Virus record (IMG/VR): IMGVR_UViG_3300009158_002556 | Span: 1 to 64,000 of that record | Length of the DNA: 64,000 nt | Strand: one strand, 5' to 3' | DNA from: a virus | Lineage: Duplodnaviria > Caudoviricetes | In this document: in pieces, positions 767-24,707 of the stretch | Numbering within the stretch: the stretch's first letter is position 1 | Layout of the letters: each line of letters starts with the position of its first letter | The notes under the pieces: generated by a model | What the model was told of the DNA's origin: nothing | The model's input: only the letters and a program-made list of their open reading frames with translations | The model's database searches: none | Made by a program: the position numbers and the translations under genes

Positions 767-1609
767 ATGAAAGGAATTATTCTAGCGGGGGGGACTGGTA
801 GTAGATTATATCCATTAACCAGTACAATAAATAAACAATTGATGCCTGTATATGACAAGCCAATGATTTATTATCCATTTAATACTCTTATTACATGTGG
901 GATTACTGAAATTTGTATCATTTCTTCCCCGGACTATTTGCCACTTTACGAAAAGTTATTTGGTGACGGAAATCAATTAGGTTTGAAAATTACCTACAAA
1001 GTTCAGTACAAACCAAGAGGAATTGCTGAAAGTTTTATAATCGCTGAGGATTTTATTGGTAAAGATAATGTTGCTTTAATACTTGGTGACAATATATTCC
1101 ACGGAATGCCCAGAGTCAAGCCTTTACTTGAAGGCGCAATTATTTTTGGTTATGAAGTTACTGATCCAACCGCTTATGGAGTTATTGAGTTTGGAGAAGA
1201 TAATAAGGTTTTAAGCATAGAAGAAAAACCAAGCCAACCCAAAAGCAAATTTGCGGTGCCTGGCTTATACTTTTATGATAATAAGGTAATTGAATATGCT
1301 AAAATACTCAAACCTTCATCAAGAGGTGAACTTGAAATAACTGATTTAAATTTAATATATCTTGACAGGGGCGAACTTACTGCTATAAAATTTGCAAGAG
1401 GCACAGCGTGGCTTGATGCTGGAAGTGCTGAAACATTATTTCAAAGTAGTGCTTATATACAATCAATTCAATCTAGACAGGGTATAAAAATAGGATGTAT
1501 AGAAGAAGAGTGCTTAAAGCGCAAATTAATAAATAAAGCGCAACTTAAAAACCTCATTGACAAATTACCAAATTGCGAATACAAACAATACCTGAGCAAA
1601 TTATTATGA
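767..1609 (+). CDS. rmlA: glucose-1-phosphate thymidylyltransferase
   Basis: GIILAGGTGSRLYPLT, KQLMPVYDKPMIYYP, QYKPRGIAESF, LILGDNIF, SSRGELEITD, WLDAG motifs. Confidence 0.95.
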   Translation: MKGIILAGGTGSRLYPLTSTINKQLMPVYDKPMIYYPFNTLITCGITEICIISSPDYLPLYEKLFGDGNQLGLKITYKVQYKPRGIAESFIIAEDFIGKDNVALILGDNIFHGMPRVKPLLEGAIIFGYEVTDPTAYGVIEFGEDNKVLSIEEKPSQPKSKFAVPGLYFYDNKVIEYAKILKPSSRGELEITDLNLIYLDRGELTAIKFARGTAWLDAGSAETLFQSSAYIQSIQSRQGIKIGCIEEECLKRKLINKAQLKNLIDKLPNCEYKQYLSKLL

Positions 1610-2472
1610 TTATATTATTCGGCGCAACAGGCTACATTGGTAGCGAATTTAAAAAGCAACTAGAAGAACTTAAAGTTCCTGTATTTTTATGGTCAAATAC
1701 TAGAGTAACCACTTTTCAAGACTTAGAAAATTGGTATGCAGAAAAGGGTTATCCACTAATTGAATACGTTATAAACGCAGCAGGCTATACCGGCAAGCCC
1801 AACGTAGATGCCTGTGAATTACACAAGGATGATACTATTCATGGTAATGTAATCTGGCCAACCATCTTAACCGATTGGTGTATTTTAAATGATATTCCTC
1901 TGGGTCACGTATCCAGCGGTTGTATCTACGAGGGTAAAAGAGCCGATGATCAACCATTCACAGAGGATGATGAGCCAAACTTTAATTTTAAATATAACAA
2001 TAGTAGCTTCTATAGTGGTACCAAAGCAATCGCTGAAACCATCGTTGGTAAGTGGGAAAAGAGTTATATTTGGAGACTTCGTATTCCGTTTGAAGAATTT
2101 GATAACTCCAGAAACTATATCAGTAAGATTTTAAAATATCAACTACTTCTAGATGCAGAAAATAGTGTAAGTAATAAACAAGAGTTTGTAAGCGCTTGTA
2201 TTCAAACACTAAATAAAAAAGTACCATATGGTATTTATAATGTTACCAATAGTGGGTATATCACAACCAAAGGAATCACTGAGAAGTTCAAACAGACGAT
2301 TGCTAAAAACAAAATCTTCACGTTTGTTGACGAAGTAGAGTTTTACAAAAATGTGGTTAAAACCCCACGTTCAAATTGCGTGATGAGCAATGAAAAGTTG
2401 TTGTCAACTGGAATTAAAATGAGAACCGCTGATGAAGCGGTTGACTATTGTTTAAATAATTGGACTATATGA
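1606..2472 (+). CDS. RmlD-like SDR, NRS/ER-type (putative bifunctional 3,5-epimerase/4-reductase)
   Basis: FGATGYIG, NAAGYTGKPNVDACE, HVSSGCIY, SFYSGTK (YxxxK), LRIPF. Start moved to 1606 because of the ATGA overlap with the rmlA stop. Confidence 0.8.
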   Translation: MIILFGATGYIGSEFKKQLEELKVPVFLWSNTRVTTFQDLENWYAEKGYPLIEYVINAAGYTGKPNVDACELHKDDTIHGNVIWPTILTDWCILNDIPLGHVSSGCIYEGKRADDQPFTEDDEPNFNFKYNNSSFYSGTKAIAETIVGKWEKSYIWRLRIPFEEFDNSRNYISKILKYQLLLDAENSVSNKQEFVSACIQTLNKKVPYGIYNVTNSGYITTKGITEKFKQTIAKNKIFTFVDEVEFYKNVVKTPRSNCVMSNEKLLSTGIKMRTADEAVDYCLNNWTI

Positions 2473-3425
2473 ATATAATAGTAACTGGTGGTAGTGGATT
2501 TATTGGAAGCCACTTTATTGAAGAAATCATCAATCGTGATGATGTAAAGAATGTATACAATATTGATTGTGGTACTTATGCTGCAAACAAAAATCTTTCT
2601 TTTGATAAACATCCAAAATATCATAAACTAACTCTGGATATTGCAGCACCATACTTTCCAGATCAAAAAAACTATCTTCACTCATTGACACCATCTCATG
2701 TGGTTCACTTTGCAGCTGAATCTCACGTAGACAAGTCTATATCTGGTCCCAAACGATTTGTAGAAACCAATATTATTGGTACATTCAATTTACTGGAAAT
2801 ATTCAAATCTTATAATCTTAATAAATTTATACACGTATCGACCGACGAAGTATATGGTAGCTTAGGGTTCAAACAATCATCATTTGATGTAGATAGTCCA
2901 TACAGACCCAATAGTCCATATTCTGCCACCAAAGCAGCCAGTGATCTATTGGTCAGAAGTTACAACAAAACATATGGTACTCCTACGATTATAACCAATT
3001 GTAGCAACAACTTTGGTCCAAGACAATTCCCAGAAAAGTTGATTCCACTAACTATAAATAAGTTAAAGAACAAAGAACGTATACCTGTGTATGGTAACGG
3101 AGAGAATATCAGAGATTGGATCTATGTTAAAGACCATGTTAACGCTCTAATTAGTGTTACACTAGATGGTGTTGCTGGAAAACAATACTTGATTGGGGGT
3201 AACAACGAAGTGTCTAATGTAGAACTATTACACACGATTGTTGCTGTATATGAAACTATCACAAATCAAAAAGTTGATTGGGACTGGTTTGAATATGTAG
3301 ATGATCGGCCCGGCCACGACTTTAGATATAGTATAGATAATCGGGATTTCAGCATGGAATTTCCAAACTTTAAGTTAACTTCGTTTGAAACTGCTATTAA
3401 TGAGACTATTCGATCATATTTATAA
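2469..3425 (+). CDS. rmlB: dTDP-glucose 4,6-dehydratase
   Basis: TGGSGFIGS, HFAAESHVD, HVSTDEVYG, PNSPYSATKA, NCSNNFGPRQFPEKLIP, DRPGHDFRY. ATGA overlap start at 2469. Confidence 0.95.
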   Translation: MNIIVTGGSGFIGSHFIEEIINRDDVKNVYNIDCGTYAANKNLSFDKHPKYHKLTLDIAAPYFPDQKNYLHSLTPSHVVHFAAESHVDKSISGPKRFVETNIIGTFNLLEIFKSYNLNKFIHVSTDEVYGSLGFKQSSFDVDSPYRPNSPYSATKAASDLLVRSYNKTYGTPTIITNCSNNFGPRQFPEKLIPLTINKLKNKERIPVYGNGENIRDWIYVKDHVNALISVTLDGVAGKQYLIGGNNEVSNVELLHTIVAVYETITNQKVDWDWFEYVDDRPGHDFRYSIDNRDFSMEFPNFKLTSFETAINETIRSYL

Positions 3426-9753: not shown

Positions 9754-11202
9754 TTATACCTCTTTGAGGGCCAAAGAGGGTAAACCTTGTCCCATACTAT
9801 GTTCATATAGTATTGCAGCAGTAGATTGATTAAATGGAATATTTAAAGTATTTCTAACTCGGGTTTCCAAATCATCTCTCATTTTAACAATTTCATCAGA
9901 CTTCAAAAAATCAGTATATACATAACTTACATAATTTTGTCCTGGTACACCTTTATAAAAGTTACTGGTTGTTGTATAGTCCAAAGTTTTGCTATAGAGA
10001 TTATCTCCTGTCTTCTCAACAGTGTACTTGTAAATATTCTCTCCAATCTCTATAGACTTATCATAATAAGGAGTACCTGGATATGGTGTGATTACGGTAC
10101 AATCAAAATCATCAGTTCCATTCTTAATCAAGAAGTCCGCAACATCATTGATAGTTTGTTCACTTTCACCTGGATGGCCCACACTCATCAGTGACTTAAT
10201 CTTGAGTCCATACTTCTTACATTTCTCGATAACTTTTACATTATCATCGTAAGTAGCTTTTTTATTGATGTTCTGTAAGATACGATCATTGCCAGCCTCA
10301 AATCCACAAAGCAACCATCTAAATCCGGCTTCATACATCAACTTGGCTTGTGTATCAGTAAACAATTCACTTTTAACAAACCCTCTCAATCTAAACTCCA
10401 CACCCAATTTTTGTTGTAACTTAATCAAGTCAGTCAACAAAGATTCAAATTGTTTATTTACATTGAGTTCATCATCATAAAACATGAACCCTTCTAACCC
10501 ATACTCTTTATGTAAGAACTCAATTTCATGTAAAATATTATGACCACTACGAGTACGAATTCTTCTCAACGAATTACTTAGTCTACCACCACAAAATCCA
10601 CAATTAAATGGACATCCCAATTGTGCTATAATACTCGTTGCCTTCTTACCATCAATAGTATAATGATATGACTCAAGATCAATCAGTTCTCTAGCAGGAT
10701 ATGGTAATATTTCATAATCCTCGTTGGTTAAGAAATATTGTTGTTTTGGATCATCACCATCAATAAATCTTTGTGTTGTTTCTATTGCTGGAAAAATAGC
10801 CTTCTCACCATCACCACTTACTAAACAATCAAAATGTTCTTCCAATACATTTTTGTTCATTGTAGAACGTTTGTTTGGATTGTTCTTATAAGCCGCATAC
10901 ACCAAAGTAACATGTGGACCACCCAATACAACTCTACTATTTGGTTTATGTTTCTTGATTAAATCTTTAATCTTAATTGAGTGTGGAAGTTGTGGTGTAG
11001 TTGCTGTAATGCAAAAGATGTTAGAATCTTTTTGCTTTAAATAAGAATCCATCACATCCAAGTAGTTTTTTATACCACTTAAATCTAATACGTTCAATTC
11101 ATATTTGGATTGTAGTACAGCTGCAATTTTGAGTAAACCCAAACTTGGAAACACTCTTTCATCTAACAAAAATGGGGATGGTGGTATAATCAGTGTTATC
11201 AT
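9754..11202 (-). CDS. B12-binding-domain radical SAM protein (class B methyltransferase-like)
   Basis: PSLGLLKIAAVL, TATTPQ, VVLGGPHVT (cobalamin domain); CPFNCGFC at about 10591-10614; FYDDEL, GFEAGNDRILQNINK, TPYPGTPYY. Confidence 0.88.
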   Translation of the reverse strand: MITLIIPPSPFLLDERVFPSLGLLKIAAVLQSKYELNVLDLSGIKNYLDVMDSYLKQKDSNIFCITATTPQLPHSIKIKDLIKKHKPNSRVVLGGPHVTLVYAAYKNNPNKRSTMNKNVLEEHFDCLVSGDGEKAIFPAIETTQRFIDGDDPKQQYFLTNEDYEILPYPARELIDLESYHYTIDGKKATSIIAQLGCPFNCGFCGGRLSNSLRRIRTRSGHNILHEIEFLHKEYGLEGFMFYDDELNVNKQFESLLTDLIKLQQKLGVEFRLRGFVKSELFTDTQAKLMYEAGFRWLLCGFEAGNDRILQNINKKATYDDNVKVIEKCKKYGLKIKSLMSVGHPGESEQTINDVADFLIKNGTDDFDCTVITPYPGTPYYDKSIEIGENIYKYTVEKTGDNLYSKTLDYTTTSNFYKGVPGQNYVSYVYTDFLKSDEIVKMRDDLETRVRNTLNIPFNQSTAAILYEHSMGQGLPSLALKEV

Positions 11203-14505: not shown

Positions 14506-15150
14506 ATGACTGGAATCGAAAACAAACTGATCTGTCTGAATCTTAATGCTAACTGGCAACCAATTGGCTTTAAGACCGTTAAAGACGCAATCGTAGATCT
14601 ATGTGGATGTGATGTTGGTGGAAAACCAGCTACACTCGCATTGGACATTGATTATAACATTGACGATTTTGGCGATCCAATTCTCACCGAACCAAAGACC
14701 ATGAACCCTGTTTCTTGGACTGAATGGTTGTCATTGCCAGTACGTCCTTGGGATCTAAGCATCAATAGCGCACATATGAAGGTTCGTGTTCCAACAGTTA
14801 TCATTGCTGTTAATTTCAGCAAGATGCCTGTAAAGCAATTCAAAAACAAGCCAAGCAAGGATGCGATCTATGTACGTGATGGTGGTATTGACCAATACAC
14901 TGGTAAAAAACTAGATCGTAACATTGCAACGGTAGACCACGTTATTCCTCGTAGCAAAGGTGGTGGTGATACTTGGGAAAATCTTGTGTTGTGTTCAAAA
15001 GACATTAACTCAAAAAAAGGTAATCGTTACAACAACGAAGTTGGTTTGAAGTTGTTAAAAAACCCAACTGCACCACAACCAGTTCCAGTGTATGCTTTGA
15101 TCAAAGATGCTCGACACGTTGATTGGCAACATTTTTTGATCAAAAATTAA
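14506..15150 (+). CDS. HNH endonuclease
   Basis: RDGGIDQYTG, TVDHVIPRSKGGGDTWENLV, NSKKGN. Confidence 0.88.
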   Translation: MTGIENKLICLNLNANWQPIGFKTVKDAIVDLCGCDVGGKPATLALDIDYNIDDFGDPILTEPKTMNPVSWTEWLSLPVRPWDLSINSAHMKVRVPTVIIAVNFSKMPVKQFKNKPSKDAIYVRDGGIDQYTGKKLDRNIATVDHVIPRSKGGGDTWENLVLCSKDINSKKGNRYNNEVGLKLLKNPTAPQPVPVYALIKDARHVDWQHFLIKN

Positions 15151-20102: not shown

Positions 20103-20579
20103 ATGTCTAACTTTTCTCATTTATTATCAAAACACGGAGTGATGTCTAGTTTTAATATCGCTAGGAAAATAAAAACCAGTGATATCAATAAAATTAAGAA
20201 TAACATTATTGACAAATCCGATTCAAAACCAGATATTCTTAACAAATTGATATTATTAAAACAAGAAAGTCGATTTATGGATGACATACCTGGATTGATA
20301 ATAGATGTAGAAAAATCAGACATGATGATATACTTCGACGGACTTCCGACTCATGTAAAAAAAATTCTGGTACAAATATCAAATCAATTTGCTGCAAAGT
20401 CTATTGAAAAGAAATTAAATACACCAGAAATATTGGTGGCAATTCAACTGATATTTAATCAGTTAGGCATCGAATCCCAAGACCTACGTGACTTTAATAG
20501 AATGTTTAATAATCTTCCCCCACAAGATAATATTGATGATGAAGAGGACGATGATGATGGTGAAGACGATGAATTTTAA
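20103..20579 (+). CDS. hypothetical protein with acidic tail
   Basis: ORF track; ends DDEEDDDDGEDDEF. Confidence 0.65.
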   Translation: MSNFSHLLSKHGVMSSFNIARKIKTSDINKIKNNIIDKSDSKPDILNKLILLKQESRFMDDIPGLIIDVEKSDMMIYFDGLPTHVKKILVQISNQFAAKSIEKKLNTPEILVAIQLIFNQLGIESQDLRDFNRMFNNLPPQDNIDDEEDDDDGEDDEF

Positions 20580-21709
20580 ATATTATTTATTGTATTAACA
20601 AACCAACTAATTTGTTCTGGTGTAACACTATAATGTAATCCAACATACAAACCATTTTCGTTAATAATGTCTGCGTGAGGATAATCCCCATTAGCATATT
20701 TCTTAAATGCAGTTTGTTTTAATAAGTTACCACCAATAATAGGACGATATTCTATACCTTTACGTTTACAGAAGTTTTTAATCTTATCAATAGTTTCTTT
20801 ATTTTTTGCAATAATTGGCAAACTAAATAAATTGTCTTCATTCTTGACTTGAACATTATAGAAAGAGTTTTGATCCAATAATGATGTAAATATCTCGCCA
20901 CAGAATTTTCTATGACTTGTATATAAAGGAACACGTTTAAAATCTAATAAACCAATATACGCATGTATATCACTATTTCTAAAATTATTCCCTATACAAT
21001 AAAAATCAAATAATGGATCTACATCTGGATTTTTATATTTTTCTTGATTCTCTGGTGGTAAATGACGATACATACCATGATTACGAATCATGTTGAATAG
21101 TTCATATTCTTTTTCATCATTGGTAAATACAAACCCACCCTCAACACTTTGTAACATATGACCAAAATAAGTGCTTGTGGTTGATGTAAAAAATGAAGCA
21201 ATATTTCTACCCCTAAACTTTGTAAAGGTACTTTCACAACTATCCAACATGATTCTAACCTTATACTTGGTTTTAAGATAGTTCAATTTATCAATGTCAG
21301 GTGAAATACCTAACAATGCAGTAATAAAGATTGTTCCAACCTCCGGGTCTTTCTTGAGAATATTTTCTACTTGATCCAGATCGATTGATAGATTGTTCAA
21401 TTTAACATCTACAAAAACTGGTTCAAATCCACACTTAATAAACGGAGTGATAGATGTAGCCCAAGTTACGGCCGGAAAAATGATCTTTCGTTTAGTTTCT
21501 ACTTGATCAAGATAATAAGCAAGTAAAGTATTTGCTGTTGATCCACTTGATACAAATAAGGCATATTTACTACCAACGTATTTAGCCATCTTTTGCTCAA
21601 ACTTTTGAACTTGTTTTCCATATGTCCAGAAATTGTTAGTATTTAAAAAGAATCCACATATCTTAAGTCTATCCCAAAACGTAAAGTGATTTGTATTTAG
21701 CTTCCACAT
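20576..21709 (-). CDS. colD: DegT/DnrJ PLP enzyme, ColD-type (His replaces the catalytic Lys); putative GDP-4-keto-6-deoxymannose 3-dehydratase
   Basis: FVSSGSTAN, PAVTWATS, MLDSCES, STYFGHMLQSVEGG: His sits 6 residues before EGG, where aminotransferases have Lys. Confidence 0.75.
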   Translation of the reverse strand: MWKLNTNHFTFWDRLKICGFFLNTNNFWTYGKQVQKFEQKMAKYVGSKYALFVSSGSTANTLLAYYLDQVETKRKIIFPAVTWATSITPFIKCGFEPVFVDVKLNNLSIDLDQVENILKKDPEVGTIFITALLGISPDIDKLNYLKTKYKVRIMLDSCESTFTKFRGRNIASFFTSTTSTYFGHMLQSVEGGFVFTNDEKEYELFNMIRNHGMYRHLPPENQEKYKNPDVDPLFDFYCIGNNFRNSDIHAYIGLLDFKRVPLYTSHRKFCGEIFTSLLDQNSFYNVQVKNEDNLFSLPIIAKNKETIDKIKNFCKRKGIEYRPIIGGNLLKQTAFKKYANGDYPHADIINENGLYVGLHYSVTPEQISWFVNTINNI

Positions 21710-21810
21710 ATGATATATGTATGAATTTTAAAGTATGATTTATAATTTTATTTCAATTAAAATAATGTTGTATTACATAGAAAAAATACGTATCTATAAA
21801 GATTAATTGT

Positions 21811-22941
21811 ATGGAAGTTTTAAACATCAAAGACGCACAGAGTTTTATTAACAATCGCAAAGTTGTATTTATTACCGGAGTAACAGGCCAAGATGGTAGT
21901 CACTTGGTTGATTATCTATTAGAAACCACCGACTATTTCATAATTGGTGGGGCCAGAAGACTAAGTACAAAGAATCACGAAAACATCAGTCATATAAAAA
22001 ATGACAGATTCAAACTAGTTAACTTTGATCTGAGTGATGTACATAGCATAAACAAAATTGTACAAGATCTTAAACCAGATTACTTTGTCAATTTGGCAGC
22101 ACAAACCTTTGTTGGTTCATCATGGGATTTTCCAGCACAAACATGGGAATGTAATACTACTGCTATTATTCATATTCTTGAAGCTATCAGACAACATAAA
22201 CCAACTTGTAGATTTTATAACGCTGGCAGCAGTGAAGAATTTGGTGATGTTGAATATATTCCGCAAGATGAAAAACATCCATCTAAACCACGTAGTCCGT
22301 ATGGTGCTAGTAAATCCGCCGCGAGACAATTAGTTAAAGTATACAGAGAAAGTTATAATCTATATGCAATTCAAGGATTATTGTTCAATCATGAAGGCAC
22401 TAGAAGAGGTGAAGAGTTTGTTACACGTAAAATTACAAAGGGAGTAGCTAGAATCAAAAAAGCTATAGTTGAAGGTAAATCATTTGATTCAATCGAATTG
22501 GGTAATGTAAAAGCCAAAAGAGATTGGAGTGATGCGGAAGATTTTGTTAAAGGTATTTGGTTAATGTTAAATCAAGAAAAATGTAGAGTTGATATGGATA
22601 GTAATATGAAAATTGAAGAATATGTGTTATCTAGTAATGAAACACATACCATTGCAGAATTTGTATGGCATGCATTTAAAGCGGCTGATATTGAAGGTGC
22701 ATGGCACGGACAAGCTGAATCCGCTGAATTTAGTATTAGTACAAAAGATGCAATCAAATATGAACCAGTGTCTTCTGTATTGGTTAAAATCAATCCTAAG
22801 TTTTATAGACCTGCTGAAGTGGACTTATTACTGGGTGATAGCACCAAAGCCAGAAAAGAATTGGGATGGAAACCAGAAACTGACTTTGAAGGACTAATAA
22901 AAAAGATGGTTATTAACGATTTAAAACAGGTCGGACTATAA
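21811..22941 (+). CDS. gmd: GDP-mannose 4,6-dehydratase
   Basis: ITGVTGQDGS, NLAAQTFV, FYNAGSSEEFG, PRSPYGASK, FNHEGTRRGEEFVTRKIT, RPAEVDLLLGD. Confidence 0.93.
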   Translation: MEVLNIKDAQSFINNRKVVFITGVTGQDGSHLVDYLLETTDYFIIGGARRLSTKNHENISHIKNDRFKLVNFDLSDVHSINKIVQDLKPDYFVNLAAQTFVGSSWDFPAQTWECNTTAIIHILEAIRQHKPTCRFYNAGSSEEFGDVEYIPQDEKHPSKPRSPYGASKSAARQLVKVYRESYNLYAIQGLLFNHEGTRRGEEFVTRKITKGVARIKKAIVEGKSFDSIELGNVKAKRDWSDAEDFVKGIWLMLNQEKCRVDMDSNMKIEEYVLSSNETHTIAEFVWHAFKAADIEGAWHGQAESAEFSISTKDAIKYEPVSSVLVKINPKFYRPAEVDLLLGDSTKARKELGWKPETDFEGLIKKMVINDLKQVGL

Positions 22942-22950
22942 TTATACAAT

Positions 22951-24438
22951 ATGAGCGACACTTATACATTATATAATGAAACGGTAATGGATCATTTCAT
23001 GAACCCAAGAAATATGGGCGATATAAAAGACGCAGATGCTACTGGTGAAGTAGGCGCCGCAGCGTGTTTTTCGGGAGACACTCTAATAGCCACGGCGGAT
23101 GGTAACTTACATACTCCTATTAAAAATCTGGTTAATAAAATAATGCCTGTTTGGAGTTTTAATATAAAAACAAATTTATTTGAAATAAAAAATGCTATTG
23201 GAGTTGTTTCTGGTGTTAAAAAAGTATATAAATTGACTTTGAATGATGGTGGTGAAGTAATATGTACTGAAGATCATAAGTTTTTAACTCGGCCAAAAAA
23301 ACAATATGTTGAAAACAAAGTATTAACAATAGATGATTCAATTTATCCGTTTAAACGAAAAATAATTAAAAATGGATATTGGGAAATTAGAAAATCTAAA
23401 CATAGAAAAGAACATATTGAAATTTATAAATTTCATAATCCAAATCATAATACAGATGGTTATGATATACATCATATAGATGAAAATAAAAGAAATAATC
23501 GTATAAGTAATTTTCAGGGATTATTAAAGTCAGAACATATTAAATTAACTAATCCAAATTGGGATAAACCAAAGACATTTGATGTATGCATTAAAAAAGA
23601 TGTTTTATTAGAAAATATAGATAAATTTGATGATAAAAGTGAGTTGGCAAATCATTTTGGAATATATACAGATCATTTAATGTATATAATTGGATATTAT
23701 GATATTGATAAAAGATTCAAAAAACTAACCACTGAAGAACAAAGAAAATTAATATCTCAAAGACAAAGTGGTAAGAATAATTGTTATCATAAAATGTCAG
23801 ATGAATGGAAACAAAACTTTGCTTCCAAACCAAAAGAAAAAAACCCTAAATGGTTAGGATATTCAGATGAAGATCTATTTAAAATTGGAAATACTTTATA
23901 TAAAAAACATGGGAAATTAACAGCAGATATTTGGCGAAATAATGCTAAACAAAATAAAATTCCACAAAGTTTATCAACCAGATTTTCATCGTGGAATTAT
24001 TTTATTGGTGAATGTAAAGGTTATAATCACAATATAATAAAACGACAGTATATCGGAGAAATTGAAACTTATACACTACAAGTTGAGGATAATAACAATT
24101 ATGTTGTTTTATCTCGTATAACACATAATGTTGAAGAAGGTATTGTTGTAAAAAATTGTGGTGATATTATGAAGATCACTCTTAAAATTGATGATGCTAC
24201 ACAAACAGTAACTGATGCTAGATTTAAGACATTTGGGTGTGGCAGTGCGATAGCTGCTTCCAGTATGGCTACTGAATTAATAAAAGGTCGTACTATAGAA
24301 GAACTTCAGAAAAATTTTAACAATGATGATATTGTTACTGCGTTGGGCGGCCTTCCACCAGTAAAAATCCATTGTTCAGTTTTGGCCACCGAGGCACTTA
24401 ATGCCGCGTTAGAAAATTACAAAAATAAAAATAAATAA
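22951..24438 (+). CDS. iscU: Fe-S cluster scaffold IscU/NifU precursor containing an intein (mature protein 131 aa)
   Basis: DHFMNPRNMG...GEVGAAA | CGDIMK...ARFKTFGCGSAIAASS...LPPVKIHCSVLA; three Cys, Asp and His ligands intact once the insert is removed. Confidence 0.93.
   Translation: MSDTYTLYNETVMDHFMNPRNMGDIKDADATGEVGAAACFSGDTLIATADGNLHTPIKNLVNKIMPVWSFNIKTNLFEIKNAIGVVSGVKKVYKLTLNDGGEVICTEDHKFLTRPKKQYVENKVLTIDDSIYPFKRKIIKNGYWEIRKSKHRKEHIEIYKFHNPNHNTDGYDIHHIDENKRNNRISNFQGLLKSEHIKLTNPNWDKPKTFDVCIKKDVLLENIDKFDDKSELANHFGIYTDHLMYIIGYYDIDKRFKKLTTEEQRKLISQRQSGKNNCYHKMSDEWKQNFASKPKEKNPKWLGYSDEDLFKIGNTLYKKHGKLTADIWRNNAKQNKIPQSLSTRFSSWNYFIGECKGYNHNIIKRQYIGEIETYTLQVEDNNNYVVLSRITHNVEEGIVVKNCGDIMKITLKIDDATQTVTDARFKTFGCGSAIAASSMATELIKGRTIEELQKNFNNDDIVTALGGLPPVKIHCSVLATEALNAALENYKNKNK
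23065..24156 (+). mobile_element. intein (364 aa) with HNH-type homing endonuclease
   Basis: Block A CFSGDTLI; block B VICTEDHKF (TxxH); HHIDENKRNNRISN at about 23470; block F ETYTLQVEDNNNY; block G VVKN followed by extein Cys. Confidence 0.93.
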
Positions 24439-24446
24439 ATTAAGTT

Positions 24447-24707
24447 ATGAATAAATTCGAAACACAAACACCAAAGCTAAATTTTAGCATCAAAGATACT
24501 CAACCAGTTGCATGTCATGATTGTAAGGGTCAAGTATTTGCAAATGGTATCATACTCAGAAAAGTTAGTAAAATACTAGCAGGTACTGATAAGGATGCAC
24601 TTGTTCCAGTAACTATACCATATTGTGTCAATTGTTTATCTGTTCTAGAAGATTTGTTACCAGACGAATTAAAAAGTAACAATTCAAACAAAATCAGTCT
24701 TGTTTAA
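24447..24707 (+). CDS. small zinc-ribbon-like protein
   Basis: CHDC...YCVNC. Confidence 0.65.
   Translation: MNKFETQTPKLNFSIKDTQPVACHDCKGQVFANGIILRKVSKILAGTDKDALVPVTIPYCVNCLSVLEDLLPDELKSNNSNKISLV

Follow-up and report, generated by a model that had tools for sequence, protein, structure and literature searches.

We found that the iscU gene of an uncultured T4-like phage is split by an intein, and it is very likely that this is a selfish and currently mobile element, a class-1 intein with an HNH endonuclease, which invaded the gene directly before the codon for the first cluster-ligand cysteine. IscU is the central Fe–S scaffold of the ISC pathway. We argue that selfish homing suffices to explain the element, because alleles of the gene without the intein are common.

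The phage is represented by a 64-kb window (the whole stretch of DNA that was analysed) with a G+C content of ∼30%. The window encodes a T4 gp43-type DNA polymerase (phrog_262, 1e-175), for which the closest polymerase from an isolate, that of Microcystis phage Mel-JY01, is just 41% identical, as well as a tail-lysozyme-like protein, many glycosyltransferases and sugar-nucleotide enzymes. Directly upstream of iscU, gmd and a gene for a DegT/ColD-like PLP enzyme are arranged head-to-head (20576–22941), and the window also has rmlA/rmlD/rmlB-like genes (767–3425) and at least six glycosyltransferase genes; given these genes, the phage seems to make unusual sugars. Within the 64 kb we found no ribonucleotide reductase (RNR), second intein, second iscU or IscA.

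T4-like marine phages have been reported to carry iscU as an auxiliary gene alongside genes for Fe–S client enzymes of the phage (PMC5332604). Those genomes resemble the window in the kind of phage, in the iscU gene and in Fe–S clients such as radical SAM proteins, but no intein was reported in their IscU, whereas the IscU of the window is intein-split. In the window, a B12-binding radical SAM enzyme could plausibly be a client that the phage itself encodes for its IscU scaffold. The 86-aa zinc-ribbon-like protein encoded after iscU has no Pfam match, and its clusters in the Atlas are exclusively of phages; it is a possible partner of IscU in this phage. Coordinates of these genes and of the parts of the precursor are listed in Table 1.

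The split IscU precursor

The iscU gene (22951–24438, plus strand) is a single unbroken ORF of 495 codons that encodes a 495-aa IscU precursor. NifU_N (Pfam, 5.4e-44) matches the precursor in two separate stretches, Intein_splicing (PF14890, 2e-11) matches aa 49–393, and HNH_3 matches aa 155–196 with a score above the gathering score (6.9e-6). Among the NCBIfam models, both the N-terminal and the C-terminal intein models (TIGR01445, 6.4e-12, and TIGR01443) have matches in the precursor, as do the IscU/NifU equivalog models. Solved IscU structures in the PDB (with matches down to 3.3e-30) cover aa 8–39 and then aa 403–493, and the gap in these alignments falls at the first cluster-ligand cysteine: C403 is Cys37 in the register of E. 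coli IscU (3lvl_A). The insertion point is between Ala38 and Cys403. When joined, the two exteins give a 131-aa IscU with CGD, FGCG, IHCS and LPPVK, i.e. with the hallmarks of the IscU/NifU_N family (the three Cys ligands, the Asp after the first Cys, the His before the third Cys and the LPPVK chaperone motif).

A preliminary description of this DNA had placed a 364-aa intein between GEVGAAA and CGD (23065–24156), with a TEDH block B and an HNH endonuclease, and had claimed that its removal leaves a 131-aa IscU with all ligands, in which the residue following the intein is equivalent to Cys37 of E. coli IscU. The boundaries are exact and are independently shown by alleles with an empty site (see below); the ligands are all found in the exteins, the equivalence to Cys37 agrees with the 3lvl_A register, and block B and the endonuclease are borne out by the invariance of T106 and H109 and by the HNH_3 match.

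Table 1. Features of the iscU locus and of other genes in the window
Feature	Position	Strand	Evidence or remark
B12-binding radical SAM enzyme	9754–11202	−	Radical_SAM 2e-26
Free-standing HNH endonuclease gene, mobile-element candidate	14506–15150	+	HNH_4 4e-10
GDP-mannose 4,6-dehydratase gene (gmd), directly upstream of iscU	21811–22941	+	GDP_Man_Dehyd 1.6e-102 (Pfam); syntenic in all sister phages
N-extein, aa 1–38, ends GEVGAAA	22951–23064	+	Aligns with residues 5–36 of solved IscU; joined to the C-extein in L003–L011
Class-1 intein, 364 aa (aa 39–402), 1092 bp, CFSGDT...GIVVKN	23065–24156	+	Pfam/TIGR models, AF2 HINT fold
Intein first codon, Cys1 (TGT)	23065–23067	+	
Block B, T-E-D-H (T106, H109)	23266–23277	+	T106/H109 invariant in the 40-sequence alignment A1
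HNH nuclease motif, aa 155–196 (H175, N187, H196)	23413–23538	+	Pfam HNH_3
Helical region from the HNH to the C-terminal splicing part, aa 200–357	23548–24021	+	All-helical by prediction
C-terminal splicing part, blocks F and G, ...YTLQVEDNNNYVV...GIVVKN	24022–24156	+	N402 invariant
Intein last codon, Asn (AAT), after Lys	24154–24156	+	
C-extein, aa 403–495 and stop, starts CGDIMK	24157–24438	+	NifU_N, solved IscU alignments
Cys+1, the first cluster ligand (TGT)	24157–24159	+	
86-aa CxxC...CxxC zinc-ribbon-like ORF, 9 bp after iscU	24447–24707	+	Travels with iscU; also follows iscU in L015–L017

The insert has the features of a class-1 intein: Cys1 in block A, TxxH in block B, a terminal Asn followed by Cys+1, a HINT fold, and an exact in-frame insertion. 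It also has those of an HNH homing endonuclease, namely the His-Asn-His motif and signs of mobility (presence/absence polymorphism and discordance between intein and exteins). Across 40 aligned full-length homologues (A1), C39 (which is Cys1), T106, H109, H175, N187, N402 and C403 are invariant, and K401 and H196 are conserved at ≥90%. An AF2 model of the precursor built on A1 (mean pLDDT of 85.3) contains the HINT fold, for which Foldseek found matches to the Ssp/Npu DnaB and DnaE inteins (DnaB/DnaE mini-inteins), and the extein parts of the model match IscU structures with an rmsd of 1.3–1.6 Å. The helical region (aa 200–357) probably serves the homing nuclease for binding to DNA.

The C-terminal splicing blocks depart from the usual pattern. 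Block F reads YTLQVE(D/E)NNNYVV, with both the usual His and the usual Asp absent, and the penultimate His of block G is absent as well, with Lys401 in its place. A penultimate His is frequent in class-1 inteins, but not obligatory, and sequence comparison indicates that Lys401 is a trait of the clade that does not disqualify the element as a class-1 intein. Asn cyclisation in this Lys-Asn clade would have to proceed with neither the block F His nor the penultimate His.

Empty sites, mobility and selection

A scan of IMG/VR for related loci, which the preliminary description had proposed as a check for iscU homologues with inserts at this site, gave 13 loci, and the majority of these closest phages (nine out of 13, L003–L011) are intein-free. 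Their IscU proteins are 132–135 aa long and read ...GEVGAAACGDIMK... without an insert, and GEVGAAA-CGDIMK runs contiguously across the predicted junction. At the DNA level these nine loci are 88–93% identical to the joined exteins of the window; the nearest exteins to those of the window are intein-free, with the best tblastn segment 95–98% identical in amino acids. BLAST alignments of the sister loci to the window end at 23067 and restart at 24157, and the difference between the window and its sister phages is exactly 1092 bp. We therefore observe a clean 1092-bp presence/absence polymorphism. The gene order is shared by the window and the sister loci: gmd, iscU and the ORF for the 86-aa zinc-ribbon-like protein, followed by glycosyltransferase and lysozyme genes.

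Comparison with another occupied locus (L001) gave very different divergences for the intein and for its surroundings. The DNA of the intein is 94.2% identical overall and 97–100% identical in its centre (including the helical region), against 71% for the N-extein, 63% for the C-extein and 81% for gmd. At the protein level the intein is 95% identical and the exteins 63%, and dS is 0.24 for the intein, but >1.5 or saturated for the exteins. Judged from these sequences, the discordance is what would be expected as the outcome of recent horizontal homing. The exteins beside the intein show no co-conversion tract when the window is compared with L001, so this comparison does not point to a donor of the window's intein copy. 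The 60-nt flanks of the two occupied alleles agree at only 41 out of 60 bases, and recognition of the target must therefore tolerate much variation. We also observed a mosaic of dS values within the intein in this comparison (0.28 for HINT-N, 0.11 for the HNH and helical centre, and 0.65 for HINT-C), which suggests recombination inside the intein, or else that intein copies have swapped their nuclease modules.

Both the intein and its host gene are under purifying selection. The dN/dS ratio of the intein is 0.10 against L001 and 0.09 against L002; the HNH and helical/linker region alone has a ratio of 0.07–0.10, and the exteins have ratios of 0.06–0.25. These low values indicate that the nuclease, the splicing domain and IscU are all maintained, which in turn implies that the precursor is likely to splice and to give a working IscU. 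The spread of the element into intein-free alleles, driven by its HNH endonuclease, had been put forward in the preliminary description; it is now backed by the empty sites, by an intein that is 94% identical in iscU genes of only 63–71% identity, and by the dN/dS of ∼0.1.

We propose the following life cycle for the element. Once translated, the intein would excise itself through the canonical four-step pathway, in which Cys403 would act as second nucleophile, and splicing would be constitutive enough to keep IscU useful. The released 131-aa IscU would work with the IscS and HscA/B of the host, and would probably supply Fe–S clusters to phage enzymes, such as the window's B12-radical SAM protein. 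In a co-infected cell, the HNH nuclease would cleave intein-free iscU at GCx-GCx/TGY-GGN-GAY (here and below, a slash in a motif marks a splice junction or insertion point), and the intein would be copied into the break during repair. The position at a ligand cysteine can be understood because the codons there are invariant and only precise excision leaves a functional protein; intein sites usually follow this logic.

Related inteins in IscU and ribonucleotide reductase

Inteins in IscU are not confined to the window. A search for homologues over 5.8 billion proteins gave 958 matches, and we mapped inserts in 121 sequences, i.e. the window protein and the best 120 of the 958 matches. 101 of these 121 sequences have an intein at the same site as the window protein (site a, .../CGD), 24 have one at the second ligand cysteine (site b, ...FG/C...HN/CGSA), and in 18 both sites are occupied. 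The site-a inteins fall into three size classes (mini, 138–173 aa; intermediate, 188–236 aa; and full, 321–399 aa) and are of mini, HNH and LAGLIDADG kinds. The last two residues of the 101 site-a inteins are KN in 80, HN in 13, RN in seven and SN in one, and the HN-ending set includes a separate LAGLIDADG lineage that ends in ...LHN. Among these other metagenomic IscU/NifU inteins, those at site b are unrelated in sequence to the intein of the window and the LAGLIDADG inteins are of a different lineage; unlike the others, the window copy is a full HNH form in a T4-like phage for which sister alleles with an empty site are known.

An unrelated 333-aa site-b intein (...KTFG/C...SHN/CGSA) is found in closely related phage IscU proteins (L002:6001–8433, which is P0004, and P0078, P0082, P0085, P0089, P0090 and P0098). 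Some of these proteins have a site-a intein as well and others do not, so occupation of one site is independent of the other.

The carriers are diverse. Numerous independent contigs, which come from JGI, ENA and Logan, have the same intein-split IscU architecture, and the sole cellular record in this collection is a protein of an NCBI Nanoarchaeota MAG, which is annotated only as a scaffold protein. For example, a jumbo-phage contig encodes an IS1595-type transposase, IscA, the intein-bearing IscU, ThyX and dCMP deaminase consecutively (L014:7122–12869). In another example, a giant-virus-like contig encodes an IscU that is extended at its N terminus and carries a KN intein at site a, and the gene for this IscU lies between two IscA-like genes (L018:7507–10020); the same contig has a gene for an mRNA capping enzyme/N7-methyltransferase, FtsJ and thioredoxin, and this gene set looks like a viral Fe–S assembly cassette in a virus of eukaryotes. 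Among 50,697 records of isolated or deposited phages we found no intein-bearing IscU, only intein-free IscU and inteins of unrelated hosts.

When the intein by itself was compared with 1.84 billion representatives (1248 matches), the best matches outside IscU were large subunits of RNR. The HNH inteins of RNR, which are common and are found in phages and bacteria, align over the entire length of the window intein, including the HNH and the helical region, with 26–40% identity; the similarity is highest in the C-terminal 140 residues/helical region (about 40% identical). These RNR inteins end in ...(I/V)CVKN, followed by CGE, and their N-extein ends in ...TNP, which is the catalytic Cys site; the junctions to be compared are ...VKN/CGE in RNR and ...VKN/CGD in the IscU of the window. 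The inteins in the two genes share the ...(I/V)(C/V)VKN end with its penultimate Lys, and likewise both directly precede an essential Cys (in RNR the catalytic, thiyl-radical one) that is followed by Gly and an acidic residue. They differ in the host gene and in the N-extein, which is TNP in RNR and GA(A/P)A in IscU, and the block F His is kept in most of the RNR relatives (DDNHNY), whereas the IscU clade has NNN.

We built a quick maximum-likelihood tree, which is unrooted and has several open nodes. In this tree the main IscU intein clade (40 rows, SH-aLRT of 100) is sister to 12 RNR inteins with KN ends, within a wider RNR set, and a second, small IscU intein clade branches elsewhere. Because HNH inteins at the catalytic Cys of RNR belong to the same Lys-Asn clade, the IscU site (PA/CGD) was probably colonised by a jump from the RNR site (NP/CGE), although the direction is not fixed by the unrooted tree. 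The penultimate Lys would accordingly be a residue inherited from a clade that spans two host genes in which positions +1 to +3 are almost alike. In the preliminary description, Lys in place of His was thought to slow or condition splicing. The comparison does not support this suggestion: Lys is the consensus of the clade, present in the majority of the site-a IscU inteins (80 out of 101) and in the RNR relatives, and it is therefore no hint of impaired or conditional splicing in the window copy.

Alternative readings and implications

An intein placed exactly on a cluster-ligand cysteine is a natural all-or-none lock on IscU, and the element could have been co-opted as a switch, an idea put forward in the preliminary description: oxidants or Zn/Fe/Cu acting at Cys1, Cys+1 and Asp+3 would hold back splicing and IscU activity, so that the scaffold is released only when Fe–S assembly is possible. 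We consider this unlikely. The nucleophiles at both splice junctions are indeed cysteines, and one of them, Cys+1, doubles as a metal ligand with a conserved Asp after it, but Cys1/Cys+1 pairs are common among inteins at large, and nothing in the arrangement is specific to IscU, as the same clade is found at the catalytic Cys of RNR. Two different ligand cysteines of IscU carry inteins, and mini-inteins that have no nuclease (138–173 aa) occupy site a in many lineages, where they may have been retained for a function; in the window copy, however, the nuclease is under selection, as a selfish cycle predicts. Furthermore, the phage has no need of the intein, since nine of the 13 closest IMG/VR loci are without it, and the window copy was acquired recently by horizontal transfer. 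The sequence data lend the switch no support.

There is a precedent for such a switch in Fe–S assembly, the intein in SufB from Mycobacterium tuberculosis, which was reportedly described as a sensor of oxidative and nitrosative stress by Topilina et al. in 2015 (a reference in PMC4760082). The splicing kinetics of SufB have been studied (PMC8891592). The SufB (Pps1) intein is similar to the one in the window in that it lies within a core Fe–S assembly protein and in that Cys1/Cys+1 chemistry is proposed to sense stress. It differs in belonging to the SUF system, in its host protein, in its site, which is not a cluster-ligand Cys of a scaffold, and in being part of a cellular genome; and the IscU intein, unlike that of SufB, is polymorphic in its population. 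The two inteins also differ in endonuclease type and in fixation. The retention or fixation that would be expected of a SufB-type sensor is not what we see: most of the closest phages are without the intein, and its acquisition was recent.

The most far-reaching possibility, which we regard as improbable, is that the inteins at the ligand cysteines (sites a and b) are redox- or metal-gated locks with which viruses, from T4-like phages to giant viruses, would time their Fe–S supply. In a milder version, a Lys-Asn clade with an undescribed chemistry of Asn cyclisation would hop between catalytic-Cys sites in enzymes that are unrelated, from NP/CGE of RNR to PA/CGD of IscU.

It is very unlikely that the intein is dead or decaying and no longer splices, with this copy of iscU being a pseudogene. 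It is true that three residues on which many inteins rely, the penultimate His and, in block F, the His and the Asp, are absent from the element, but the Lys-Asn end is kept in hundreds of sequences in two host genes. C1, T106, H109, N402 and C403 are intact in the window copy and invariant across the 40 homologues, dN/dS is ∼0.1 in the intein and 0.06–0.25 in the exteins, and the ORF is unbroken for 495 codons; we rejected the pseudogene reading on the strength of these intact essential residues, the purifying selection and the uninterrupted frame. A chimeric assembly, or pieces of iscU wrongly called as one gene with a free-standing HNH gene (such a gene does exist in the window), is hardly conceivable and was rejected too, since the precursor is a single stop-free frame with HINT splicing blocks on both sides of the HNH, and since the same architecture on many independent contigs (at least eight for the closest homologue alone) cannot be an assembly artefact.

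Selfish homing thus remains the best explanation, and should the intein be only selfish, it would be of an ordinary kind, with just its location being new. The literature searched contained no description of IscU or NifU inteins, and IscU/NifU is not mentioned in the text of the intein survey by Novikova (2015). According to the preliminary description, an IscU intein is not known to have been described; this holds for the literature searched, but hundreds of such proteins are present in sequence databases. What we describe is a new host gene and a new site for a well-known kind of element, and what is new with the locus in the window is the set of matched empty and occupied alleles, the ongoing transfer and the link to RNR. 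Phages, giant-virus-like contigs and tiny archaea all carry members of this widespread family, but it is absent from the literature searched, which is a real gap.

The link to RNR explains the odd Lys-Asn end, and it suggests that inteins colonise new host genes via similar +1 to +3 residues (Cys-Gly-Asp/Glu). The locus itself is direct population evidence of an element that is on the move now, and the near-identical phages with and without the intein are an ideal matched pair for tests of homing, fitness or regulation.
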